Origin: a virus
Lineage: Duplodnaviria; Heunggongvirae; Uroviricota; Caudoviricetes
Strand: one strand, 5' to 3'
IMG/VR virus record: IMGVR_UViG_2711768053_000019
DNA length: 55,142 nt
The notes beneath the pieces are model-generated. The model made no database searches. It worked only from the letters and a program-made list of their open reading frames with translations, and was not told where the DNA came from. Below, in pieces: positions 20,029 through 54,454 of this stretch; the first letter of the stretch is position 1; each line of letters begins with the position of its first letter. The position numbers and the translations under genes are program-made.

Positions 20029-23009
<2,981 letters not shown>

Positions 23010-23086
23010 AACCCTTGCTGCGTCTGGAATGTCGTTTTCCATGCTTTTGATGACCGTTCATCACCCTTCCAGTTTTTCGCGGTTTT

Positions 23087-23140
23087 GTGTATTGCAATGT
23101 GTATTGCAAATTGGCGATCGGGATGGGTGTGTATTGCAAA
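23087..23140 (+). repeat. Three direct copies of TGTGTATTGCAA near element left end (candidate integrase arm-type sites)
   Basis: Copies at 23087-23098, 23098-23110, 23127-23140; two further copies near right end at 33754-33776. Confidence 0.4.
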
Positions 23141-23157
23141 TCTCTTGAGGGCTTTTA

Positions 23158-24399
23158 ATGGCTATTGAAAACAAACTCAGTGACAAACTGTTAAAGAGTC
23201 TTGTCGGAAAACGGCAGGACAAACAAAAAACAATAGCGGATGGGCGCGGGTTGTCTGTGCGTGTAAGCATGGTTGGGGGGATCAGCTTTGTTTTTTACTA
23301 TCGTCTTGGTGGCAGGGAATCCCCTCCGGTATGGCTTACACTTGGTCGCTATCCTGACATGTCTCTTGCAACGGCCAGGCGCATGCGTGATCAGTGCCGT
23401 GAATGGCTGGCTGAAAATCTGGACCCCCGCAGGCAAATAAAACTTGCTGCCGAAAAAACTATGCAACCAGTGACCGTAAGGGATGCGCTGTTTTACTGGT
23501 ACGACAATCACGCCACAACAGCCAGAAAAGAGCATGAATATTTAATAAAACGATTTGAAAAGCATATCTTCCCCTATATCGGTGATATGGCTATAGAACA
23601 GTGCAAATTACACACATGGCTTACCGTCTTTGACAGGATCAAAAAAAATGCGCCTGTTATGTCTGGTGCAATTTTTCTTGATATCAAACAGGCGTTGCGT
23701 TTTTGTCGCGTCAGGCAATACATCGCGTGCGATCCCTTTGGAGATATTAACGTAAGTTATGTCGGGCGCTCATCCGGTATAAGGGATCGCGTTCTTAATA
23801 TCAATGAAACCGCTGATGTATGGTCTTATGCTTACGGTAATAATTTGCTAACTCTGTCATCAATATATAACCGAAGAATAATGGTTATCTGCCTGGTGTT
23901 TGGTTGCCGACAGCAGGAGGCGAGGCTATCCACCTGGGACGAATGGGATTTAAAAAACTGGGTATGGACAGTCCCAAAAGAGCACAGCAAAAACAAGGAG
24001 GCTATAGTAAGGCCTGTTCCTGACGGAATAAAACAATGGATCGTTAATCTTTACGCAGAAACAAAAAATCGCGGTTATGTTGTCGGTTGTGCTTTGCAAA
24101 GGGCGACAATAACAGGGGCTGCAAACAGAATATGCAGGCGTCTTGGTCATGATACTAATGGCTTGTGGTGCATACATGATTTCAGGCGCACATTTTCCAC
24201 TACGCTTAATGATATGGGGGCGGATCCTTATATTGTCGAACTTCTTTTAGGTCATAAAGTGAAAGGGGTTGCTGGTGTTTACAATAAAAGCAGGCATATA
24301 AAGAAAAAACTTGAGGTGCTTAATATGTGGGTTAATTACCTTAATACGATAGCAGGATTTAACAACAACGTTATCGAGCTTAATAAAGAGGTGGTGTGA
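23158..24399 (+). CDS. int: Tyrosine integrase of the inserted element (413 aa)
   Basis: C-terminal HDFRRTFSTTL...LLGH...VYNKSR (R-H-R-Y-type catalytic pattern); N-terminal arm-binding-like domain. Confidence 0.85.
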   Translation: MAIENKLSDKLLKSLVGKRQDKQKTIADGRGLSVRVSMVGGISFVFYYRLGGRESPPVWLTLGRYPDMSLATARRMRDQCREWLAENLDPRRQIKLAAEKTMQPVTVRDALFYWYDNHATTARKEHEYLIKRFEKHIFPYIGDMAIEQCKLHTWLTVFDRIKKNAPVMSGAIFLDIKQALRFCRVRQYIACDPFGDINVSYVGRSSGIRDRVLNINETADVWSYAYGNNLLTLSSIYNRRIMVICLVFGCRQQEARLSTWDEWDLKNWVWTVPKEHSKNKEAIVRPVPDGIKQWIVNLYAETKNRGYVVGCALQRATITGAANRICRRLGHDTNGLWCIHDFRRTFSTTLNDMGADPYIVELLLGHKVKGVAGVYNKSRHIKKKLEVLNMWVNYLNTIAGFNNNVIELNKEVV

Positions 24400-24400
24400 T

Positions 24401-24658
24401 ATGGCAATTTATTCTCTTGTTGATGAAAACGATTTGCGCACAATGAAGGACATTGATCGGTTCATTCGTGAAAAAGAGTGCATAGCACTTACCACGCTGG
24501 CAAACTCAACACGCTGGAAAATGGAGCAGGCAGGTAAATTCCCGCGACGTATCAAGATCGGTGAACGTGCTGCAGGGTATCGACTTTCAGAGGTTCAGGC
24601 ATGGATCCGTGGTGAGTGGCATCCTGGATGGAAACCTGGAAAAACAAAACAGCAATAA
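24401..24658 (+). CDS. alpA: AlpA-family transcriptional regulator / excisionase-like (85 aa)
   Basis: HTH LTTLANSTRWKMEQAGKFPRRIKIGERAAGYRLSEVQAWI; directly follows int in same orientation. Confidence 0.7.
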   Translation: MAIYSLVDENDLRTMKDIDRFIREKECIALTTLANSTRWKMEQAGKFPRRIKIGERAAGYRLSEVQAWIRGEWHPGWKPGKTKQQ

Positions 24659-24671
24659 CCAGTAAATAATG

Positions 24672-24694
24672 CCCCTCATCACGAGGGGTTTTTT
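24672..24694 (+). terminator. Intrinsic terminator after alpA
   Basis: CCCCTC-ATCAC-GAGGGG followed by TTTTTTGTC. Confidence 0.55.
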
Positions 24695-24714
24695 GTCTAT
24701 AAGGTAAAAACGCG

Positions 24715-25293
24715 ATGAATAAAAATATTGCCGTGACGGGCAAGGGGTACGCTCGTCCAGTGAAAAAATTCTGCGATATTCGTGATCTCGTCGTTCTGCG
24801 CTTTGATAGTGTGAACGTTCGTGTGGTGTATCTGAACGGCGATCCGTGGTTTGTTGCAAAAGATGTTTGTGCTGCGCTGGAACTAACCAATTCGCGTACG
24901 GCGTTGCAGATGCTTGATGATGATGAAAAGGGAGTAAATTTAACTTACACCCCAGGAGGAAATCAGAATATGAGAATTATCTCTGAGTCAGGTTTCTACA
25001 AACTAATAGCCCGCAGCCGCAAAGCAACGACGCCTGGCACATTTGCTCATCGTTTCAGTAACTGGGTATTCAGAAATGTGATACCAGGTATCAGAAAAAC
25101 GGGGACTTATGGTATCCCGTGGGGTGCATTACAGGATTTTTCCCGCCGTAAAGAGCAATATCAAATAAGTGCCAGCGAGAAGGGGAGGGAGCTACAGGCA
25201 TGTAAGCGCAAAAAGCGTGAGCTGGAGGAAGAAGAAAAAACGCTGATACGTGAATATCAGCCTGAGTTTTACTTTGGTAACCGCATTCAGTGA
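24715..25293 (+). CDS. Bro-N domain protein (antirepressor-like), 192 aa
   Basis: FVAKDVCAALELTNSRTALQMLDDDEKG pattern typical of Bro-N domains. Confidence 0.6.
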   Translation: MNKNIAVTGKGYARPVKKFCDIRDLVVLRFDSVNVRVVYLNGDPWFVAKDVCAALELTNSRTALQMLDDDEKGVNLTYTPGGNQNMRIISESGFYKLIARSRKATTPGTFAHRFSNWVFRNVIPGIRKTGTYGIPWGALQDFSRRKEQYQISASEKGRELQACKRKKRELEEEEKTLIREYQPEFYFGNRIQ

Positions 25294-25323
25294 CAAAACA
25301 AAGGCGACCGCAAAAGGGTCGCC
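25294..25323 (-). terminator. Terminator for minus-strand regulatory operon of the element
   Basis: GGCGACC-GCAAAAG-GGTCGCC hairpin followed on minus strand by TTTGTTTTGT. Confidence 0.45.
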
Positions 25324-25389
25324 AGTGGGAACAAGGGAAAACAAAAGCATCACCAACAATGCCACATTTGCGGCTGGTGGGCAATGTGA

Positions 25390-25569
25390 TCAGTCAGATT
25401 TGGTTCGTTCCAAGGTTTGCAACGAGAGCTTTTTCCTGTGCTCTTTAAGGAATTTCTCAAGAGCAAACGAACAAGGTGCGAATCTTTCTGATTCATGTTC
25501 ATGCGCTATATTTTTGCGTCGTCTCTTACGAGTTGGTGATGGTGTTTTGGTTGATTCTGTGTCGCTCAT
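25390..25569 (-). CDS. Small basic protein (59 aa) downstream of RHH gene
   Basis: Hand-translated MSDTESTKTPSPTRKRRRKNIAHEHESERFAPCSFALEKFLKEHRKKLSLQTLERTKSD; AGGACA SD; below ORF-track cut-off. Confidence 0.35.
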   Translation of the reverse strand: MSDTESTKTPSPTRKRRRKNIAHEHESERFAPCSFALEKFLKEHRKKLSLQTLERTKSD

Positions 25570-25626
25570 GGTGCTGTCCTGTAAAGCAATGCGCCTGCGT
25601 TCCTCAAACTATGGCGCTGATATTGG

Positions 25627-25932
25627 CTATTCATGCTCTTTGACCTTGCGTCGCTGGAGTTCTTCACGCGCGACGGTGACGAGTTGCCCGATCTCCTCGG
25701 CTGCTTTGATGCCGATTTGTTCGACCTTAGCCAGGGCATCCAGTGACGACACAAGGGGATTTTCTCCGCTGCCTTCTGCTTGGCGGCGGGCTATTTCTCC
25801 GCGCATGGCGGTTACGATAAATCCGGCATTGCTTTCACCGTCCAGCTTAACGGATTCCATCCCTTGCATAACATCTAGTGGGACTCTGACAGTTGTCAGT
25901 TGTGATTTTGCGTTTTTGTTAGCCGTTGCCAT
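25627..25932 (-). CDS. Putative ribbon-helix-helix repressor of the element (101 aa)
   Basis: TTVRVPLDVMQGMESVKLDGESNAGFIVTAMRGEI fits RHH beta-strand/helix pattern; divergent from replication/packaging operon. Confidence 0.45.
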   Translation of the reverse strand: MATANKNAKSQLTTVRVPLDVMQGMESVKLDGESNAGFIVTAMRGEIARRQAEGSGENPLVSSLDALAKVEQIGIKAAEEIGQLVTVAREELQRRKVKEHE

Positions 25933-25993
25933 TTCTGAAACTCCTAATCATCGGTGTGTTTCAGTATACACAAAAAAAGAAATACAAAAAGCC

Positions 25994-26031
25994 TTGACGT
26001 GTGTTTCATGCGCTCATAACATGAAACACAC
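25994..26031 (+). promoter_or_regulatory. Promoter/operator of element rightward operon: TTGACG -35 with 12-bp perfect inverted repeat
   Basis: GTGTGTTTCATG-cgctcataa-CATGAAACACAC (25999-26031) overlapping TTGACG (25994-25999) and TAACAT-like -10. Confidence 0.45.
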
Positions 26032-26122
26032 CGAAAGGATTGTTGAAATACAAAGAGCAACGCCCCGCAGTGCTGGGAACACATACGGGGCGTCTAACCA
26101 ACAACGTAAACTAGGAGCCGTT

Positions 26123-26320
26123 ATGGTTGCTGTAAATCATATACCACACCTTGTACACACACAAACGGCCTTTGTGTGGCGTTTTCTGGCACTGAGTGCC
26201 GGAGAATCTCAAATCATCCACGTAACCGCCTGGACGGAACGCGAAGCGCGTAGCCGTTGCCCGTCCGGTTGTGTTGCTGTATTCGCTGCAAAAATCCGCC
26301 AGGGAGTGAGTCATGCTTAA
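26123..26320 (+). CDS. Small protein (65 aa), first gene of element rightward operon
   Basis: AGGAG SD 5 nt before ATG; stop overlaps next start (ATGCTTAA). Confidence 0.45.
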   Translation: MVAVNHIPHLVHTQTAFVWRFLALSAGESQIIHVTAWTEREARSRCPSGCVAVFAAKIRQGVSHA

Positions 26321-26498
26321 AACCTTCCGTGTATTTGCCCGAGCTGTTAACCCAATAGGCCACACAATTGGTATCGCTCAGAATGTGAAGGCTGTTAATG
26401 TTCAGACGGCTATTGCTGCGGTGAGAAGCGAATCATCAGAATATGGCTTATCACAAGTCATTATTTCAGCAGTGTATGAATTAAAAGAGGTGCATTAA
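26313..26498 (+). CDS. Small hypothetical protein (61 aa)
   Basis: Translationally coupled string of small ORFs. Confidence 0.4.
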   Translation: MLKTFRVFARAVNPIGHTIGIAQNVKAVNVQTAIAAVRSESSEYGLSQVIISAVYELKEVH

Positions 26499-26689
26499 TG
26501 CAGGAAATTACATTACACGAAGCCGCTGAACGTGCGCACCAGACAGAAATTATTTGCCGCCTTCTTGAGGTATACCCGAACAAAATTACAGATGCTGATA
26601 TATCCGCACTGGCGAGCCTACTGGCGCGTCTTTCGGGAAGTGTCGCTAGTTTTTTGATTGAGGAAGAAAGTAAGCTGGTGGGGGATTAA
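26498..26689 (+). CDS. Small hypothetical protein (63 aa)
   Basis: Coupled start/stop overlap. Confidence 0.4.
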   Translation: MQEITLHEAAERAHQTEIICRLLEVYPNKITDADISALASLLARLSGSVASFLIEEESKLVGD

Positions 26690-26911
26690 ATGAATACAGA
26701 ACGGGAAGTCTTTTTTAAATTGTTAGCATGTGCAGAAAGTTCATTAACTTTAAATAATTCAGCAAAAGCAATATTAAATATGTGGCTTGATTGCATAAAT
26801 GACAATGAAGATGCAAATATTGCTTATGGCCTGTTGTCACTTATTGATGAATCAGCAGAAAAACTCAATGACGCAATAAATAGTGCCCTGCTATCAAATA
26901 AGTCGAGTTAA
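26690..26911 (+). CDS. Small hypothetical protein (73 aa)
   Basis: ATG immediately after previous stop; AT-rich. Confidence 0.4.
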   Translation: MNTEREVFFKLLACAESSLTLNNSAKAILNMWLDCINDNEDANIAYGLLSLIDESAEKLNDAINSALLSNKSS

Positions 26912-26928
26912 GTCGAGGAATAAATAAT

Positions 26929-27228
26929 ATGGAAATGAAAAATTCTGGCTTTATTGCCAGCGGCCCCGCTCGAACTGAATTTATGAACGGCGATATTTAC
27001 CGCGATAAATACGGCGGCACGGTAACGATTAAAGGCGTGGCAGAACGGCGCATCACTTACCGCCGTGAGGGGTATAGCTATGACTGCGTGATGCCTGTTT
27101 ATCAGTTCCGGCGTGATTTTTCCCTGGTATATGCCGCACCCCGCAGTAAGCCCATCAGCAGGGAAAAAGCGTGGGGAAATATCCAGAAAATGAAAACCAT
27201 GATTAACGGATTCAGAGGTAAAAAATGA
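26929..27228 (+). CDS. Hypothetical protein (99 aa)
   Basis: ATGA overlap with primase gene start. Confidence 0.45.
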   Translation: MEMKNSGFIASGPARTEFMNGDIYRDKYGGTVTIKGVAERRITYRREGYSYDCVMPVYQFRRDFSLVYAAPRSKPISREKAWGNIQKMKTMINGFRGKK

Positions 27229-28979
27229 AACTGGCACCGAACGTAAAACAGCAGTCACGCGGCATAAAACACAAAGGAACAGAAGTCATTATTTTTGCGG
27301 GTAGTGATGCCTGGGCACACGCGAAACAATGGCAGGAACATGATGCGCGTATGGCCGGAGATAATGAGCCTCCTGTGTGGCTTGGGGAGCAGCAGCTATC
27401 CGAACTGGATAATCTGCAAATTGTGCCGGAAGGCCGAAAATCAGCACGCATATACAGGGCCGGATATCTTGCGCCTGTAATGATAAAGGCGATTGGTCAG
27501 AAGCTGGCGGCAGCAGGCGTACAGGATGCAAATTTTTATCCTGAGGGTATGCACGGCCAGGAGGTGCAGAACTGGCGCGAATATCTGGCCCGTGAACGCC
27601 AGAATCTTTCTGATGGTCTGGTCATTGAGCTTCCGGTAAAGCAAAAGGCGCAACTTTCGCAGATGGCGGACAGTGAGCGCGCGCAGTTGCTTGCCGATCG
27701 CTTTGATGGCGTTTGCGTACATCCTGAAAGTGAAATCGTTCACGTATGGCGCGGCGGGGTATGGTGTCCGGTCAGCACAATGGAACTTAGCCGCGAAATG
27801 GTGGCGATCTATTCAGAGCACAGGGCCACTTTCAGCAAGCGCGTAATCAATAACGCCGTGGAAGCGTTAAAAGTTATTGCCGAACCAATGGGCGAGCCGT
27901 CTGGCGATTTGCTGCCGTTCGCCAATGGTGCGCTTGACCTGAAAACGGGGGAATTTTCCCCGCACACGCCGGAGGACTGGATCACCACGCACAACGGCAT
28001 TGAGTACACGCCACCAGCACCAGGGGAGAACATCCGCGATAACGCGCCAAACTTTCATAAATGGCTTGAGCACGCAGCCGGAAAAGACCCGCGCAAGATG
28101 ATGCGTATATGTGCCGCGCTGTACATGATTATGGCGAACCGGTACGACTGGCAGATGTTTATTGAGGCCACCGGAGACGGCGGGAGCGGTAAAAGTACAT
28201 TCACACACATAGCCAGCCTTCTGGCAGGGAAACAGAACACGGTAAGCGCTGAAATGACATCGCTTGATGATGCTGGTGGACGTGCGCAGGTTGTCGGGAG
28301 TCGTCTTATCGTCCTGGCTGACCAGCCGAAATATACAGGCGAAGGAACGGGCATCAAGAAAATCACAGGCGGCGACCCCGTGGAAATTAACCCGAAATAT
28401 GAAAAGCGTTTCACGGCGGTAATCAGGGCGGTGGTGCTGGCGACCAACAACAACCCGATGATATTCACCGAACGGGCCGGAGGTGTGGCACGTCGTCGCG
28501 TGATTTTCCGTTTCGACAATATCGTCAGTGAGGCCGAAAAAGACAGGGAGCTACCGGAAAAGATTGCGGCTGAAATCCCCGTTATTATCCGCCGATTGCT
28601 GGCGAACTTTACCGACCCTGAGAAGGCACGGGCTTTACTACTGGAACAGCGTGACGGTGATGAAGCACTGGCAATAAAGCAACAGACGGATCCGGTTATT
28701 GAGTTTTGCCAGTTCCTGAATTTTCTGGAGGAAGCGCGCGGCCTGATGATGGGTGGCGGTGGTGATTCAGTGAAGTACACGACCAGGAACAGCCTTTACC
28801 GCGTCTATCTGGCGTTTATGGCATACGCGGGCAGGAGCAAACCGCTAAACGTGGCTGAGTTCAGCAAGGCCATGAAGCCAGCGGCGAAAGTTTACGGGCA
28901 TGAATATATTACGCGAAAAGTTAAGGGAGTAACGCAGACCAACGCAATTACAACAGACGATTGCGACGCGTTTTTATAA
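27225..28979 (+). CDS. Primase-helicase (P4 alpha / D5-like, P-loop NTPase), 584 aa
   Basis: Walker A GDGGSGKST, Walker B-like LIVLAD; size and position typical of satellite Pri-Rep. Confidence 0.8.
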   Translation: MKLAPNVKQQSRGIKHKGTEVIIFAGSDAWAHAKQWQEHDARMAGDNEPPVWLGEQQLSELDNLQIVPEGRKSARIYRAGYLAPVMIKAIGQKLAAAGVQDANFYPEGMHGQEVQNWREYLARERQNLSDGLVIELPVKQKAQLSQMADSERAQLLADRFDGVCVHPESEIVHVWRGGVWCPVSTMELSREMVAIYSEHRATFSKRVINNAVEALKVIAEPMGEPSGDLLPFANGALDLKTGEFSPHTPEDWITTHNGIEYTPPAPGENIRDNAPNFHKWLEHAAGKDPRKMMRICAALYMIMANRYDWQMFIEATGDGGSGKSTFTHIASLLAGKQNTVSAEMTSLDDAGGRAQVVGSRLIVLADQPKYTGEGTGIKKITGGDPVEINPKYEKRFTAVIRAVVLATNNNPMIFTERAGGVARRRVIFRFDNIVSEAEKDRELPEKIAAEIPVIIRRLLANFTDPEKARALLLEQRDGDEALAIKQQTDPVIEFCQFLNFLEEARGLMMGGGGDSVKYTTRNSLYRVYLAFMAYAGRSKPLNVAEFSKAMKPAAKVYGHEYITRKVKGVTQTNAITTDDCDAFL

Positions 28980-28992
28980 TTTTTTGTAAAAG

Positions 28993-29216
28993 CCATCTAC
29001 CCCATCTATCTGAACAAAATAAACTCATATTATTCAACATGATAAGTGGGTATAGGGCTAGGTAGAAGGCTAATAAAAGCTCTCTACCTCTTCTACCTGA
29101 TTTTATCAGTTTCAGGTAGCAGGGTAGACGGCAGGTAGAGGAGTCAAAAAGTTATCTACCCGCTGAAAGCCGCGCCATTACTGACATGATGAGCATTCGG
29201 GTAGATGGGTAGAGGG
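28993..29216 (+). repeat. Element replication-origin candidate: at least nine GGTAG(A)/CTACC iterons
   Basis: GGTAGAAGG, CTCTACC, TCTACCTG, CAGGTAGCAGGGTAGACGGCAGGTAGAGG, TCTACCC, GGGTAGATGGGTAGAGG immediately downstream of primase-helicase. Confidence 0.5.
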
Positions 29217-29263
29217 GGGGAGGCACAACTAAAAACTTTTTAAACGAGGGGGGGTGAAAATAA

Positions 29264-29578
29264 ATGCGCATACATAAAAATCACTTAACAAACATGCCAG
29301 CCGAAAACATGAATCAGGGGCGACAAATGACCAAAATTCGCAGAGACAGAACACAGGCAAAATATAAAGCGTTAGACATGACAGAGCTTTCCTTAAAGGT
29401 GGCAATCAAAGCGATAGACCACCACACACGGGCAGGATACGCGAAGGAACATCCCGACCTGATAAGCGCATTCATGACCACAGCAGCGGCAAACTTTGCC
29501 ACGCTGACAGAACGGGAGATTGCCGAAGCGGAACAGGTGACAACCATCAATGTTAAAACCGGAGAGCAGACAGCATGA
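29264..29578 (+). CDS. Hypothetical protein (104 aa)
   Basis: G-rich SD upstream; coupled to next gene. Confidence 0.4.
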   Translation: MRIHKNHLTNMPAENMNQGRQMTKIRRDRTQAKYKALDMTELSLKVAIKAIDHHTRAGYAKEHPDLISAFMTTAAANFATLTEREIAEAEQVTTINVKTGEQTA

Positions 29579-29997
29579 CAGCACAGATAGCGGCTTACGG
29601 GCGGCTGGTGGCTGACCCGCAGTTAAAGACCACCAGCAAAGGGACACAAATGGCGATGGCGAGTATGGCGGTTCCCCTGCCGTGCAGCCAGGCAGATGAC
29701 GGAACGGCGACGATGTGGTTATCCGTCCTGGCGTTTGGCAGACAGGCCGACGCACTGGCAAAACACCACAAAGGCGAACTGGTGAGCGTGGCGGGTAACA
29801 TGCAGGTAAGCCAGTGGACAGGCCAGAACGGCGAAACGCGGCGGGGCTGGCAGGTTATCGCAGACAGCGTAATCAGTGCGCGAACGGCGCGACCGGGCGG
29901 CAAAAAAGGCCAGCAGGGGCAGGCCACTGACGCACTGAACAGGGCAAAACAACAGTCGGGGAATGATGATCCGTACGGCGATAATATACCGTTTTAA
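29575..29997 (+). CDS. SSB-like protein (140 aa)
   Basis: Acidic C-terminal tail ending DDPYGDNIPF as in SSB C-termini; OB-fold-like core. Confidence 0.55.
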   Translation: MTAQIAAYGRLVADPQLKTTSKGTQMAMASMAVPLPCSQADDGTATMWLSVLAFGRQADALAKHHKGELVSVAGNMQVSQWTGQNGETRRGWQVIADSVISARTARPGGKKGQQGQATDALNRAKQQSGNDDPYGDNIPF

Positions 29998-30208
29998 ATT
30001 CTACAAACAAAAAGATGCCGGAAAAAAATAGATTTTCCGGCATGCTACATAAATCCCGACCAAAGGAAGTAAATACATTAACACGAATTATCAGCACTGA
30101 AGTTGTTACGGCATATTTTATACAACATTGCACTTGGTTGCATGTATTCGCATAGCAGACATCGGTAATAGAATATATTCATAATTATTTGTAATGAATG
30201 TAAAGAGG

Positions 30209-31255
30209 ATGAGTATGGTTGATTTATATTCGCCTACACAGCTTGTGCAGGTGGCTAATGCTGAAGATGTGCAAAAAAAATTAAATGCGTTGTTTACCAG
30301 TTTGTTTTTCACTCGCTCGGTAATGTTTGAATCGAGAGACATTATTCTTGATACGATCGACGATCCAAATATCCCGATCGCGGCGTTTTGCTCTCCTATG
30401 GTGGGCAGTAAAGTTTCACGAGATGAGGGATACGAATCAAAAACAATTCGTCCAGGTTATATGAAGCCGAAAAGCAGCATTGATCCAAATAAGTTAGCTG
30501 TGCGCCCTGCTGGTGTGTCACCTGAGCAATACAATGCTTTTGGGGCGCGTAATATTAAAGTTAAACAGGCGATTGTAAATCAGGCTAAAGCTATTCGTGC
30601 ACGTATTGAATGGCTTGCTGTTCAGGCAATCACAACGGGGAAAAATATCATTGAGGGCGATGGTATTGAACGTTATGAGCTGGACTGGAATATAAAACCA
30701 CAAAATATCATCACTCAGTCTGGCGGTACTGAGTGGTCAGGTAAGGATAAAGAAACTTTTGATCCAAATGATGATATTGAGAGCTACGCAGAATTTAGTG
30801 AGGGCGTCACTAATATCATCATTATGGGTGGTAATGTATGGAAGAAATACCGTTCATTCAGAGCGATAAAAGAGGCTTTGGATACCCGTCGTGGTTCTAA
30901 TTCCGAACTGGAAACGGCCCTTAAAGACCTTGGTGATTCGGTGAGTTTTAAAGGGTATATGGGCGATGTTGCGATTGTTGTTTACAGCGGGCGTTATACC
31001 GACGAGGACGGAACAGAAAAACATTTCCTTGATCCTGATTTGATGGTGCTTGGCAATACGGCTCTTCAGGGGATTGTCGCCTATGGCGGTATTCAGGATC
31101 CGGAGCTAATCCGAATGGGGCTGACTAAAGCCGAACTTGCACCGAAAAACTATATTGTGCCTGGTGATCCGGCTATTGAATATGTGCAGACACATTCAGC
31201 ACCACAGCCAATACCGGCCCGCATCAATCGTTTTGTTACCGTTCGCATTGGCTAA
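30209..31255 (+). CDS. Major capsid protein paralogue (lambda E-like, divergent), about 349 aa
   Basis: Shares blocks with prophage E (36325-37350): ITQSGGTEWS, DTRRGSNSELETA, DVAIVVYSG; start 30209 or 30215. Confidence 0.75.
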   Translation: MSMVDLYSPTQLVQVANAEDVQKKLNALFTSLFFTRSVMFESRDIILDTIDDPNIPIAAFCSPMVGSKVSRDEGYESKTIRPGYMKPKSSIDPNKLAVRPAGVSPEQYNAFGARNIKVKQAIVNQAKAIRARIEWLAVQAITTGKNIIEGDGIERYELDWNIKPQNIITQSGGTEWSGKDKETFDPNDDIESYAEFSEGVTNIIIMGGNVWKKYRSFRAIKEALDTRRGSNSELETALKDLGDSVSFKGYMGDVAIVVYSGRYTDEDGTEKHFLDPDLMVLGNTALQGIVAYGGIQDPELIRMGLTKAELAPKNYIVPGDPAIEYVQTHSAPQPIPARINRFVTVRIG

Positions 31256-31264
31256 GGGGGAGCA

Positions 31265-31606
31265 ATGGCTACTCATTACACTGAACTCATGGCTGGCACT
31301 GAAGCACTGGTGACTACGCTGGGGATATTTTCAGCTAATAAAGGGGTAATTCCTGCATTTACGCCACTGATGCAGGAAGATGCAACAGGTGCACTGGTGG
31401 TATGGGATGGTTCGAGCGTAGGTAAAGCGGTTTATGTTTCCGCTGTACAAATCGACACAGCGAAAAAAACACAGGCACAGGTTTATAAGACAGGTGTTTT
31501 AAATGTTGATGCTCTGAACTGGCCTGAGTCTGTAAAAGAACTGTCGGCAAAGGTTGCCGCGTTTGTTGGCTCAGGTATTTCTGTTCAGCCGCTGGCTCGT
31601 GTGTAA
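31265..31606 (+). CDS. Head decoration protein paralogue (lambda D-like, divergent), 113 aa
   Basis: Same length and position as D after E; VVWDGSS..., YKTGVL pattern parallels prophage D ([10 protein letters not shown]..., YKSGTF). Confidence 0.6.
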   Translation: MATHYTELMAGTEALVTTLGIFSANKGVIPAFTPLMQEDATGALVVWDGSSVGKAVYVSAVQIDTAKKTQAQVYKTGVLNVDALNWPESVKELSAKVAAFVGSGISVQPLARV

Positions 31607-31617
31607 AGGGGGATACA

Positions 31618-32001
31618 ATGCAGAATCATTACAATGACCTTAAGCCAATTGCCGAAATGATGTATCCGGATCCAGCAGTAGAGGAATTAAAGGCTATTGC
31701 TGACAAAATGCGTTTAAGTGAACGCCTTGTTGATATGAATCAGGTGATGGAACTTACTACCCTTAGCCGTCGCACATTGCTAAACCTTGAGGCTCGCGGA
31801 GAGTTCCCCGAACGCGTACAGGTTACGGAAGGGCGTAAGGCCTGGTATTTAAGTGAAGTGATCGACTGGATAAACAATATTCCTCGATCTTCTGAATATT
31901 GCCGCGTACCTGTCCCAAAAAAGCCAGATGCGGCGCTATGCCTCAAGATTGAGCGTGTACGTCGCAATGCACGGGATGGTCGCTATAAGTTGATTGGTTG
32001 A
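31618..32001 (+). CDS. AlpA/MerR-like HTH protein adjacent to element cos (127 aa)
   Basis: LTTLSRRTLLNLEARGEFPERVQVTEGRKAWYLSEVIDWI HTH; ends 25 bp before cos-like site. Confidence 0.55.
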   Translation: MQNHYNDLKPIAEMMYPDPAVEELKAIADKMRLSERLVDMNQVMELTTLSRRTLLNLEARGEFPERVQVTEGRKAWYLSEVIDWINNIPRSSEYCRVPVPKKPDAALCLKIERVRRNARDGRYKLIG

Positions 32002-32025
32002 TGAAATTAGGGCCCGTTCTGGCTG

Positions 32026-32091
32026 GCGGGTCCTTTCCGGCGATCCGGTAGGCTACGGGGCGGCGACCTCGCGGGTTTTCGCTATTTATGA
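32026..32091 (+). other. cos: Second cos site belonging to the element (cosN GGGCGGCGACCT at 32058-32069)
   Basis: 21 bp (32026-32046) and 34 bp (32058-32091) identical to prophage cos 19262-19282 and 19294-19327; flanking sequence on both sides differs. Confidence 0.8.
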
Positions 32092-32202
32092 GCCTTTTTC
32101 GGGTGCTGGTGGTGGTTTTGTTGTTCGCTCTATCTCTATGAATAAAAAGGAAAAGATAAAGCCAATATACCAACCTGAAACATTACTTAAGTGGGGATAT
32201 TG

Positions 32203-32745
32203 ATGAAATCGCACCTGATGAACAAAAAAAACATGGCGCAAAGCTGCCGTGTAAGTGCGACAGCGTTCGACAAGTGGGGAGTGACTCCCGTTGAACGTAA
32301 AGGCCGCGAGGCGTTTTATGATGTTGCCAGCGTAATAGACAATCGGGTTAGCAATGCAATTAACCAGATTACAGACGACAAAGGCGAGATTGATGATGAT
32401 GAACTCCTACGAGTCAGGATCAGATTGCTGACAGCACAGGCAGAGGCGCAGGAGCTTAAAAACGAGCGCGAACGCGGCGACGTTATTGATACAGCGTTTT
32501 GTATATACGTGCTTTCAAAATTGGCGAGTCAGATTTCTTCAATCATGGACAGCCTGCCGCTTGCCATGACAAGGAAGTTTCCCGACATGAAGCCGTCTAT
32601 GCTGGATGGACTGAAAAAAGAAGTTATCAGAGCCTGTAACGCATGCGCAAAACTTGACGAAAACATACCGCTGATGCTGTCCGATTATCTGATGGAAACT
32701 GCCGGAAACGTACCGGATAAGTTGCAGCCGAATAAAGATAAGTAA
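32203..32745 (+). CDS. Terminase small subunit paralogue (Nu1-like, divergent), about 180 aa
   Basis: Alignable with prophage Nu1: AQAEAQELKNERERGDVIDTAFCIYVLSKLASQISSIMDSLPLAMTRKFP versus AQADAQELKNARDSAEVVETAFCTFVLSRIAGEIASILDGLPLSVQRRFP; directly downstream of element cos. Confidence 0.75.
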   Translation: MKSHLMNKKNMAQSCRVSATAFDKWGVTPVERKGREAFYDVASVIDNRVSNAINQITDDKGEIDDDELLRVRIRLLTAQAEAQELKNERERGDVIDTAFCIYVLSKLASQISSIMDSLPLAMTRKFPDMKPSMLDGLKKEVIRACNACAKLDENIPLMLSDYLMETAGNVPDKLQPNKDK

Positions 32746-32756
32746 CGTAGTACGCT

Positions 32757-33038
32757 ATGACTGAATCCGAAATACTGCGATTAATCCGCCGTGCTTGTGG
32801 AATCAGCAAGCAGCATGACGAACAGGCCACGCAGCCGGACAGCGTGACCGCAGATAATTATGTGCGTGTAGTGGCTGAGGTGATGCGCCGTGACGGTATT
32901 GAGCTTAACGGCGTGGATATGCGCAACATACGAACAAGAGTCCTTGAGTTGCTGGCATATCGTCGCCGTTCTCAACAACGGAGGGAGAGCGCGAAAAATA
33001 CTTACCAGTGGAAGAAGCCGGAACGATTGCGGCGGTAA
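32757..33038 (+). CDS. Hypothetical protein (93 aa)
   Basis: Last ORF of element before noncoding repeat region. Confidence 0.4.
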   Translation: MTESEILRLIRRACGISKQHDEQATQPDSVTADNYVRVVAEVMRRDGIELNGVDMRNIRTRVLELLAYRRRSQQRRESAKNTYQWKKPERLRR

Positions 33039-33055
33039 CTTGCTGATATTCCCGA

Positions 33056-33440
33056 TAACGCAAAATTGCGCTGGCTGACTTGTTGCATTGCAAAAAGTTA
33101 AGCAGGAAGGCACGGCCTGTAAGATGGGATGCAGTAAGTAGTTCAAGGCTACCTTGTGCTGGCACGCACAGTTAAGCCGTCGGTGCTGGATATCCCCCAC
33201 TGGGGGAAAAGCTGGCTACATCCCTCACATCTGAGGACTGATAACGCGACATTGCGCTGGCTGGCAAAGTGCAAAATTGCACGATGGCCTAACCCATTGA
33301 TTATTTCGAAAACCTGCAATGCAGGAAATCGGGGAAGTAAGCCTAAGCTATTAATTGTTTCGAAAACCCCCATTGGGGGATGTCGGGAAAGTAAGACTAA
33401 CCCATTGATTCTTCCACAATCCTCAATTTGAGGAGGCCGG
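33056..33440 (+). repeat. Noncoding cluster of direct repeats and short palindromes at element right end
   Basis: Three units at 54-bp period each with a 13-bp palindrome (CCTGCAATGCAGG 33313-33325, CCCCCATTGGGGG 33367-33379, CCTCAATTTGAGG 33421-33433); ATAACGC.A.ATTGCGCTGGCTG duplicated at 33056 and 33241. Confidence 0.5.
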
Positions 33441-33853
33441 AACGTCTACATAGCTGCATCGCCGTAATGATGATTCAGCCCACCAGCCAAATCAGCACAG
33501 CAACGACAGAATAGCCCGACACAGAAAAACCACGAATATGGGGTTTTTGTTATGACATGGTCATGATGACCACTCATACAAAACAGGTAAAGCCCACCAG
33601 CCTGATTAAAGGTTAACCGGAAAAAAGCCAGGTATCCAATCTCGATATGGGGATCCCTATATCGACATTAACGCCCACTAAAACTGTGCATATATGCATA
33701 GAAAAAGCATCCACCAGCTTTATGACGGATGCCGCTCATCTTATAAATAATCGTGTATTGCAGTGTGTATTGCGACTCCTTTAAACGATAGGTCTGAGCA
33801 TTCGTAATGTACTGTTTTTAAATTTTATTTTTTCCTGTCTTTTCATAAAGGCG

Positions 33854-34627
33854 ATGTATGCCGCCACCATTGAGAGTGAGCTGGATACGCAGTCAGCGAT
33901 GGATTTTATTCTGGGCGCGAACAGTCAGGAGCAGCGGGAAAGGCTGACCGGCTGGATTGGTGAAATTGCCGCGTATTACGCCGCAGCGCCGGTCCGGCTG
34001 GGAGGCGCAAAAGTACCGCACCTGATGCCGGGTGACTCACTGAACCTGCAGACGGCTCAGGATACGGATAACGGCTACTCCGTGTTTGAGCAGTCACTGC
34101 TGCGGTATATCGCTGCCGGGCTGGGTGTCTCGTATGAGCAGCTTTCCCGGAATTACGCCCAGATGAGCTACTCCACGGCACGGGCCAGTGCGAACGAGTC
34201 GTGGGCGTACTTTATGGGGCGGCGAAAATTCGTCGCATCCCGTCAGGCGAGCCAGATGTTTCTGTGCTGGCTGGAAGAGGCCATCGTTCGCCGCGTGGTG
34301 ACGTTACCTTCAAAAGCGCGCTTCAGTTTTCAGGAAGCCCGCAGTGCCTGGGGGAACTGCGACTGGATAGGCTCCGGTCGTATGGCCATCGATGGTCTGA
34401 AAGAAGTTCAGGAAGCGGTGATGCTGATAGAAGCCGGACTGAGTACCTACGAGAAAGAGTGCGCAAAACGCGGTGACGACTATCAGGAAATTTTTGTCCA
34501 GCAGGTCCGTGAAACGATGGAGCGCCGTGCAGCCGGTCTTAAACCGCCCGCCTGGGCGGCTGCAGCATTTGAATCCGGGCTGCGACAATCAACAGAGGAG
34601 GAGAAGAGTGACAGCAGAGCTGCGTAA
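33854..34627 (+). pseudogene. B: Portal protein B, 3' portion (257 codons), resumes exactly at ...YAATIESELD
   Basis: MYAATIESELDTQSAMDFILGANSQEQRERLTGWIGEIAAYY... continues lambda B to its C-terminus by recall; in frame with 5' portion if element excised. Confidence 0.85.
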
Positions 34628-53878: not shown

Positions 53879-54454
53879 ATGGATTTCAGAATGAGTGAAC
53901 AACCACGGACCATAACAATTTATAATCTGCTGGCCGGAACTAATGAATTTATTGGTGAAGGTGACGCATACATTCCGCCTCATACAGGTCTGCCAGCAAA
54001 CAGTACCGATATTGCACCGCCAGATATTCCGGCTGGTTTCGTGGCTGTTTTCAACAGTGATGAGTCATCGTGGCATCTCGTTGAAGATCATCGGGGTAAA
54101 ACGGTTTATGACGTGGCTTCCGGCGACGCGTTATTTATTTCTGAACTCGGCTCATTACCGGAAAATGTCACCTGGTTATCCCCGGAAGGGGAGTTTCAGA
54201 AGTGGAACGGCACAGCCTGGGTGAAGGATACGGAAGCAGAAAAACTGTTCCGGATCCGGGAGGCGGAAGAAACAAAAAACAGCCTGATGCAGGTAGCCAG
54301 TGAGCATATAGCGCCGCTTCAGGATGCTGTGGATCTGGAGATCGCAACGGAGAAAGAAACCTTGTTGCTGGAAGCCTGGAAAAAGTATCGGGTGTTGCTG
54401 AACCGTGTTGATACATCAACTGCACCGGATATTGAATGGCCAGCCCTACCGTAG
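53879..54454 (+). CDS. tfa: Tail fibre assembly protein Tfa, about 191 aa
   Basis: [54 protein letters not shown]... lambda Tfa by recall. Confidence 0.8.

Follow-up and report, generated by a model that had tools for sequence, protein, structure and literature searches.

Tandem non-coding copies of a phage roi module at the right end of a helper-embedded satellite: a candidate array for capturing the lambdoid regulator Roi

The window, by which we mean the whole 55,142-nucleotide stretch of DNA analysed here, carries a satellite of about 10.9 kb (approximately 22963-33860) that is inserted, co-oriented, in a late gene of a prophage, where it splits a lambda-B-like portal gene. The host prophage is a DLP12-like lambdoid element (emrE, ybcK, rusA, quuD, essD and rrrD) whose early and nin regions contain IS insertions. 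The satellite possesses int and alpA, a Bro zone, a primase, a late zone and the TGTATTGC attP motif, features by which it is recognised as a helper-embedded PICI (HE-PICI). This configuration was described by Tommasini, Mageeney and Williams 2023, who also reported the doubled TGTATTGC attP motif and placed it at distances from the attP centre of about 81 bp on the upstream and about 132 bp on the downstream side. The attachment cores (Table 1) agree with the sequence-only reading of the region under study as the right end of an element. Chi is strongly enriched across the satellite, with three octamers falling within 240 bp beside the non-coding array that is the subject of this report and that lies between the last gene of the late zone and attR. 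Identical copies of a 1.2-kb stretch around the array are present in 49 of 5,426 complete E. coli genomes, and parts of the 422-bp array region are found in 1,236 genomes of the same set.

Table 1. Features of the satellite and its array, and composition of arrays in related satellites; alleles A, B and C are the roi alleles defined in the text.
Feature	Position	Strand	Remarks
attL core AAGGCGATTTATG	22950-22962		
Tyrosine integrase gene	23158-24399		
AlpA gene	24401-24658		
Bro-N protein gene			frameshifted in this copy
Icd-like protein gene			
D5_N/DUF5906 primase gene	27225-28979		
Iterons TCTACC / GGTAGA	28987-29216		just 3' of primase gene
SSB gene			
Major capsid protein gene	30194-31255		
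Decoration protein gene			
Second AlpA-like HTH protein gene	31618-32001		
cosN, exact lambda type (GGGCGGCGACCT)	32058-32069	+	upstream of Nu1-like TerS gene; lambda-like cosQ flanks
Nu1-like small terminase (TerS) gene	32191-32745		
93-aa protein gene	32757-33038		last gene before array
24-bp direct repeat, copy 1 GATAACGCAAAATTGCGCTGGCTG	33054-33077		contains inverted repeat CGCAA-AA-TTGCG, 33059-33070
Palindrome TTGCATTGCAA	33083-33093		
Palindrome CCCCCACTGGGGG	33194-33206		arms as in unit 2/allele B; no adjoining IHF consensus
Inverted repeat CCTCACATCTGAGG (CCTCA-CATC-TGAGG)	33223-33236		allele A arms; one extra central base
24-bp direct repeat, copy 2 GATAACGCGACATTGCGCTGGCTG	33240-33263		
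Inverted repeat GTGCAA-AA-TTGCAC	33269-33282		directly left of unit 1
Unit 1	33287-33340		IHF consensus TAACCCATTGATT, 33290-33302; 10-bp spacer; palindrome CCTGCAATGCAGG, 33313-33325
Unit 2	33341-33394		IHF-like TAAGCTATTAATT, 33344-33356; 10-bp spacer; palindrome CCCCCATTGGGGG, 33367-33379
Unit 3	33395-33448		IHF consensus TAACCCATTGATT, 33398-33410; 10-bp spacer; palindrome CCTCAATTTGAGG, 33421-33433
Three Chi octamers (CCACCAGC on plus strand)	33480-33718	-	at 33480, 33594 and 33711; one orientation, just right of array
24-bp near-perfect palindrome TCGATATGGGGATCCCTATATCGA	33642-33665		recurs in related satellites
Doubled TGTATTGC motif (published HE-PICI attP arm motif)	33753-33774	+	partner copies at 23087-23140
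attR core AAGGCGATGTATG	33848-33860		within split lambda-B-like portal gene
Array of L003 (O157:H7, clpS side)			A-B-A, 54-bp spacing
Array of L002 (dinD side)			B then A, then Q-type antiterminator gene
Array of L098			C then A
Arrays of L266 and L268			B then A, with further variant palindromes
Array of L090			two B modules 132 bp apart, then C module
Array of L207 (O157:H7, phoQ side)			single A module

The array consists of three 54-bp units arranged head to tail, units 2 and 3 being 78% and 61% identical to unit 1, respectively. Each unit follows the same design, with an IHF consensus (the reverse complement of WATCAANNNNTTR) followed after exactly 10 bp by a perfect 13-bp palindrome of the form CC-N4-N-N4-GG, symmetric at 6/6 pairs. 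The IHF match is exact in units 1 and 3, while that of unit 2 deviates at one position in the present copy and has the consensus ATTGAT in sister copies. The 422-bp region holds four perfect 13-bp palindromes against a shuffle mean of 0.09. A count of four was reached by none of 5,000 shuffles (0/5000), and when the rest of the 55-kb window was divided into tiles of 422 bp, none contained three or more. The sequence-only reading had recognised three units of about 54 bp with different 13-bp palindromes at equivalent positions, and this description holds for 33287-33448. It had also listed two further palindromes upstream, both of which are present, although their coordinates require correction (33194-33206 instead of 33204-33216, and 33223-33236 instead of 33227-33240), and a duplicated ATAACGC block, which is borne out as a 24-bp direct repeat, GATAACGC(A/G)A(A/C)ATTGCGCTGGCTG, in two copies that are 92% identical.

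The view that no credible ORF covers the region likewise stands, given that the 91-aa plus-strand and 74-aa minus-strand ORFs lack a Pfam match and that PGAP places no annotation over the region in identical copies from other genomes. On the minus strand, all three units lie in one 18-codon reading frame that mimics the peptide of the phage protein Roi, discussed below; as this frame has neither a start codon nor a Pfam match, and PGAP calls nothing, a coding region or pseudogene was rejected. A promoter scan in and next to the array, covering this copy and the related satellite L002, returned no promoter-like sequence, so that no output gene can be assigned to the array.

Three cis functions of such elements were also considered and rejected. 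The TerS gene is preceded by an exact lambda cosN, which is 1.2 kb from the array, and PICI cosB has been proposed to fall within about 65 bp of cosN and without an IHF site, which argues against a cos site. The iterons adjoin the primase gene, the organisation published for PICI origins in the 2018 founding paper, and lie 4 kb from the array, which argues against a replication origin. Integrase arm sites are disfavoured in turn by the lack of TGTATTGC in the array, which is 400-560 bp from the att core, and by the presence of this arm motif at the two ends of the element instead (Table 1); the integrase and other element-encoded proteins, proposed earlier as candidate binders of the palindromes, are unlikely to fill that role, since no satellite gene resembles Roi either. 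The cos, origin and attP arm functions of the element thus sit outside the array, which favours the reading given below.

Searched with BLAST against E. coli genomes and GenBank phages, the region gave short matches inside genes annotated as roi or antirepressor KilAC, with unit 3 matching roi at 96% identity over 50 bp and unit 2 at 88.7% over 53 bp. The roi gene is located in the nin region, between ant/ninE and ninG/Q, and its product comprises a Phage_pRha domain (aa 12-98) and an ANT/KilAC domain. The segment that matches the units encodes aa 43-60 of the Rha domain, read on the minus strand of the window, and occurs once per roi gene with the same spacing of palindrome, 10 bp and IHF consensus as in the array. 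From a 15-mer scan of viral contigs that was swamped by chance matches, we kept those with fitting context and distinguished three roi alleles in the contigs fetched: allele A, CCTCAA(A/T)TTGAGG, encoding PQIE or PQFE (68 loci); allele B, CCCCCAATGGTGG, encoding PPMVV and containing one dyad mismatch (13 loci); and allele C, CCTGCATTGCAGG, encoding PALQVFE (32 loci).

Unit 1 is identical to allele C (CCTGCA-n-TGCAGG, also the HK022 type) at 41/52 positions, unit 2 to allele B (CC(A/C)CCA-n-TGGGGG; VT2-Sakai, PPMVV) at 42/52 and unit 3 to allele A (CCTCAA-n-TTGAGG; peptide PQIEDCG) at 46/52, while the corresponding flanks agree at 8/36, 12/36 and 9/36 positions; the homology between array and roi therefore ends at the module borders, with flanks at chance level. 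The genome of VT2-Sakai contains one B-type site, within roi, and the palindrome of this site is imperfect (CCACCATTGGGGG); the mismatch is imposed on the phage by the coding sequence, and the satellite version of allele B mends it. The stems of the three units had previously been read as preserved by compensatory changes. They instead fall into three discrete operator types, each shared, together with its module of about 50 bp, with a different roi allele, and on this evidence the stem differences represent three putative operator specificities and not RNA covariation.

Comparison of ten Roi-like alleles, drawn from E. coli phages, HK022, a Xenorhabdus prophage and a Gilliamella prophage, indicates that the peptides encoded at the module differ (PQIE, PPMV, PALQ, PAMQ and PPLE), with at least 5/6 symmetric pairs present in 10/10 alleles and an IHF site at the 10-bp gap in 9/10. 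Because coding constraint alone cannot yield symmetry across differing peptides, the palindrome would dictate the local Roi peptide and, judged from these alignments, is a selected DNA feature of roi. In the putative recognition helix, the residue that comes after a conserved VK changes with the half-site, being R with CCTCAA or CCTCCG, Q with CCCCCA, and I or V with CCTGCA, which is suggestive, with the caveat that residue and half-site are linked in cis. When one genome per species was scanned for the generic module, most matches were chance (palindrome 2-4/6), and eight reached 5-6/6; the six perfect ones and that of Gilliamella (5/6) are roi-type or non-coding modules, and a Cardiobacteriaceae match inside a head-tail gene may be chance.

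The 40.7-kb genome of HK022 has its sole plus-strand IHF consensus in roi (34807), 11 bp after CTGCATTGCAG (34785). HK022 Roi reportedly binds a site within its own gene to which an IHF site is closely linked, and this binding is said to be stabilised by IHF; the predicted module anatomy found here fits that description. Papers citing the HK022 Roi work describe Roi, in the passages concerned, as a DNA-binding protein affecting lytic growth.

Repeats of this kind are also present in homologous elements. In related PICIs elsewhere in chromosomes, arrays occupy the corresponding position between the last late-zone gene and attR and point the same way, and the allele content of these arrays differs among related satellites at no fewer than five integration sites (Table 1). 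Free-standing non-coding modules occur in three Xenorhabdus genomes. The palindrome is perfect in 17 of 17 distinct non-coding modules from 10 loci, whose consensus is C-TAACccATTGAT-t-n-TT-n-C-g-n-AAa-CC[N9]GG-A-n-g-n-cGG, and the non-coding modules also keep the short 3' flank, which in roi specifies Ile/Val-Arg. The earlier proposal of selection for structure can therefore be kept for the palindromes, all 17 of which are perfect, with sites for a dimeric protein favoured and RNA hairpins disfavoured. No homologue of the N- or C-terminal part of Roi was found in ten satellite loci. The window and positions 4450000-4473500 of the near-identical strain 210205630 likewise contain no roi in the host prophage, only a P22AR C-terminal remnant; as these stretches lack the gene, a cognate Roi would come from another phage.

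Other repeats surround the array. The palindrome CCCCCACTGGGGG, given its arms, is a possible fourth Roi-type site, and the block GGCTACAYCCCTCACATCTGAGGACTG at the 33223-33236 inverted repeat recurs in related satellites. The inverted repeat directly left of unit 1 is conserved in L003, L098 and L266 and present as a variant in L002 and L090, and further inverted repeats in the region share the form xGCAA-AA-TTGCx. The 24-bp direct repeat belongs to a second module class that has no counterpart in phages. No phage counterparts were found for the flanking stretches 33039-33290 and 33441-33860, phage homologues being confined to the 54-bp units.

We consider it reasonably likely that the array is a set of tandem non-coding roi modules with three predicted specificities, through which the satellite captures Roi either as a decoy, the version we favour, or as a sensor. 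From the shared sequence we infer that Roi dimers and IHF bind the units: Roi dimers would contact the palindromes via the Rha winged helix, IHF would bend the DNA beside each of them, and the perfectly symmetric palindromes would serve as high-affinity sites for three phage Roi specificities. The 54-bp period corresponds to about 5.1 turns and would therefore place the complexes on roughly the same helical face, making a compact nucleoprotein structure plausible. Because the satellite encodes no Roi-like protein, Roi must arrive in trans, and its source would be a co-resident or infecting lambdoid phage in early lytic (delayed-early) transcription. The satellite thus probably captures or senses this phage regulator, and what follows downstream from the capture is speculative.

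A phage genome with one site would compete for Roi with a replicating satellite that bears perfected sites. As a decoy, the satellite DNA would disturb the presumed autoregulation of Roi, whereas in the sensor version a Roi/IHF nucleoprotein switch would report the entry of a lambdoid phage into lytic growth. We slightly favour the decoy, given that there is no promoter-like element at the array and no downstream gene when the satellite is integrated. Once the satellite is excised and circular, int-alpA follows the array at a distance of about 600 bp, and a sensor role is therefore conceivable after excision. Effective titration may require more than the three sites that each satellite copy provides, unless the copy number is high. 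Many roi phages (933W/VT2-Sakai type, HK022) package differently from the lambda-type cos of the satellite, so that Roi donors need not be helpers. More tentatively, the array can be regarded as a PICI "operator library", in which perfected, IHF-assisted copies of the autoregulatory operators of several Roi alleles would permit DNA-only titration or sensing of an early regulator from whichever lambdoid phage turns lytic in the cell.

It is unlikely, in our estimation, that the sites belong to a regulator made by the satellite itself, for which the Bro-N protein, the AlpA-like product of 31618-32001 and the 93-aa product of 32757-33038 would be candidates. Such a regulator would recognise the matching sites in phage roi as well and block transcription through roi toward Q, the array then being its autoregulatory or storage site. 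The satellite does have two HTH genes of the AlpA family and one gene for Bro-N, a protein of the PLE Bro network is reported to repress a helper gene, and the array is kept even in satellites that have no nearby roi. However, three different palindromes exceed the recognition of one protein, and palindrome type co-varies with a residue of the Roi recognition helix in phages of several genera where there is no satellite context. Roi is itself said to bind its own gene, and the Bro-N gene is frameshifted in this copy.

We regard as quite improbable the idea that the units are functionless debris, that is, roi fragments gained by illegitimate or homeologous recombination and then tandemly duplicated. 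The 96% identity of unit 3 to a phage roi segment implies recent transfer, the shared minus-strand frame of 18 codons mimics the Roi peptide, and capture of phage DNA is known for PICI late zones. Yet such debris would have had to be captured three times from three alleles, each time as a module of about 52 bp with homology ending at its borders, and the pseudo-ORF lacks both a start codon and a Pfam match. Decay is also hard to reconcile with 17/17 perfect non-coding palindromes, an allele B version better than the phage original, the joint preservation of the IHF consensus, the 10-bp gap and the 54-bp period, and the recurrence of arrays with shuffled alleles at five or more integration sites alongside isolated modules in Xenorhabdus.

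Structured non-coding RNA or 3' UTR hairpins of the TerS operon, acting as a stabiliser, terminator or processing site, are very unlikely. The region does fold better than shuffled sequence (z -3.76) and directly follows the final gene of the late operon without a strong intrinsic terminator separating the two, but the opposite strand folds equally well (z -3.91), as is expected of DNA dyads. As RNA, the stems would be limited to 5 bp because of the single central base of the palindromes, no U-tracts follow the hairpins, and a search of the array region against Rfam gave no match at the gathering score or at E<=1. Covariance across homologous elements had been suggested as a check; the 17 module variants contain Watson-Crick pairs only, with no G:T (G:U) wobble, and covariation thus lends no support to RNA. 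A structured RNA family was therefore rejected on the lack of an Rfam match, strand-specific folding and wobble-tolerant covariation, and RNA hairpins further fail to account for the conserved IHF consensus, a DNA-level signal, and for the identical module in phage roi, whose orientation relative to transcription is the opposite one.

Least probable of all is that the units serve satellite-phage recombination as patches of homology, with the Chi cluster as stimulator, giving cointegrates or gene capture from roi phages: three same-orientation Chi octamers within 240 bp, the enrichment of Chi in the satellite and patches of about 50 bp with up to 96% identity to phage DNA would suit this, but 41-46/52 identity with scattered mismatches makes two of the three units poor substrates, dyad perfection and IHF spacing are left unexplained, and a satellite with its own cos has no evident benefit from a cointegrate. 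What speaks most strongly against all four alternatives is the site-limited homology taken together with the perfected dyads, the fixed IHF spacing and the recurrence with shuffled alleles.

The HK022 Roi/IHF site and the HE-PICI configuration are already known, while Roi-type operator arrays on satellites, of which we found no published description, appear to be new. The paper describing HE-PICIs makes no mention of Roi, palindromes or IHF sites at this position (Tommasini, Mageeney and Williams 2023), and in the 2018 PICI founding paper the phage inducer of alpA was still to be identified. A Roi/IHF array would link the perception and manipulation of helpers by Gram-negative PICIs with the role of Roi, which is widespread in Stx and lambdoid phages, and it predicts a direct contact between phage protein and satellite DNA. 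It also offers three natural pairs of operator and protein specificity for a Rha-type winged helix, and an example of a protein-binding site in coding sequence that would dictate the peptide, PQIE, PALQ and PPMV being the translations of three palindromes. If the operator library proves true, it would constitute a protein-free device for interfering with or detecting helpers and a first functional handle on Roi.

Among known systems, the closest in anatomy is the HK022 Roi/IHF site, which, like the array units, is a dyad-symmetric site about 10 bp from an WATCAANNNNTTR IHF consensus; HK022 roi has the palindrome core in common with unit 1, and the homology of about 50 bp extends from the array to Stx and lambdoid roi alleles. 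The phage module is present in one copy per genome, within coding sequence, whereas that of the array is non-coding, tandem in three phased copies, perfectly symmetric and of three putative specificities, on a satellite without roi. Lambda cosB (R3-I1-R2-R1) and lambda attP resemble the array in combining repeated winged-HTH or arm-type sites with IHF sites at helical-repeat spacing. The array differs from both in its position, cosN being 1.2 kb and the att core 400-560 bp away, and the satellite TerS is Nu1-like, not Rha-like. With operator titration or decoy arrays it would share a proposed logic in which a replicating element competes for a phage regulator through additional high-affinity sites. 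Finally, cos mimicry by PICI and P4 satellites provides a parallel in which a cis site copied from the helper enables a helper protein to act on satellite DNA. In that case the site is a packaging signal of known benefit, whereas the array would represent an early-gene regulatory operator in several specificities, suggesting that satellites copy phage regulatory sites besides cos sites.

A second family of repeated modules accompanies the Roi-type modules, in which an IHF site is paired with a palindrome. Its members take the form GGCGGTAACTnGnTGAnATT...(inverted repeat xGCAA-AA-TTGCx or CTCAATTTTGAG)...CTGGCTG and, like the Roi-type modules, preserve their symmetry although the stem sequence differs. 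In the related PICI satellite L090, modules of the two families alternate within a 132-bp super-repeat; no phage counterpart of the second family was found. Non-coding modules that combine an IHF site with a palindrome are also present in three Xenorhabdus genomes (loci L213, L251 and L256), where they sit in the intergenic DNA of prophage-like regions with palindromes CCCCCAATGGGGG, CCTCAATTTGAGG and CCACCAATGGTGG and a conserved flank, GAAGCCGG, and the free-standing form of the module therefore also exists beyond E. coli PICIs. Within the phage gene itself, the poly-A spacer of several allele C roi genes (viral contigs L132, L152, L159, L173 and L191) is one A longer, which widens the gap between palindrome and IHF site to 11 bp, and because this insertion shifts the reading frame, these copies are probably roi pseudogenes.

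The satellite holds ten of the eleven Chi octamers in the window, leaving a single octamer for the remaining 44 kb of prophage. Directly to the right of the array of 54-bp units, three of them share one orientation within a span of at most 240 bp and are contained in the motif AGCCCACCAGCC, which recurs in related satellites. Since the satellite lacks Gam, this enrichment may shield its concatemers against RecBCD. The same flank carries a 24-bp near-perfect palindrome, TCGATATGGGGATCCCTATATCGA, also found in the related satellites L003, L090, L207 and L266, sometimes in two copies, which looks like a candidate operator for some dimeric regulator. The interval from the Chi cluster to the attP arm motif contains a strong, leftward-facing hairpin with a T-run, a predicted intrinsic terminator that would block transcription reaching the satellite from its right-hand side. 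An Rfam match to IS009 (RF02111, 218.5 bits), close to the window's right end, has no relation to the array.

Coordinates of the features described (window positions unless a locus is named)
Feature	Position	Strand
Satellite (10.9 kb)	22963-33860	
Satellite borders	22950-22962, 33848-33860	
Chi octamers in satellite	25373, 26674, 28272, 29604, 32105	plus
Chi octamers in satellite	28011, 29630, 33480, 33594, 33711	minus
Satellite small terminase	32191-32745	
Palindrome TCGATATGGGGATCCCTATATCGA	33642-33665	
Terminator-like hairpin	33706-33733	minus
Second module family	33030-33100, 33240-33282; L090 1-400; L098 (related satellite) 1000-1200	
Xenorhabdus non-coding modules	L213 6115-6165; L251 2932-2980; L256 3238-3290	
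IS009 match	54222-54420	

The match of the satellite small terminase to the Nu1 profile is limited to the C-terminal, TerL-binding two-thirds, and its N-terminal winged-HTH region is divergent. In the adjoining cos, cosQ and cosN are lambda-like and the cosB region is unrelated; together, the divergent N-terminus and unrelated cosB region are consistent with redirected packaging specificity. The DLP12-like lambdoid prophage that hosts the satellite has its early and nin regions interrupted by insertions of the IS3 and IS4 families and may therefore no longer be a competent helper. Its portal gene is the site at which the satellite is integrated, in the same orientation, an arrangement that matches the published helper-embedded PICI configuration.
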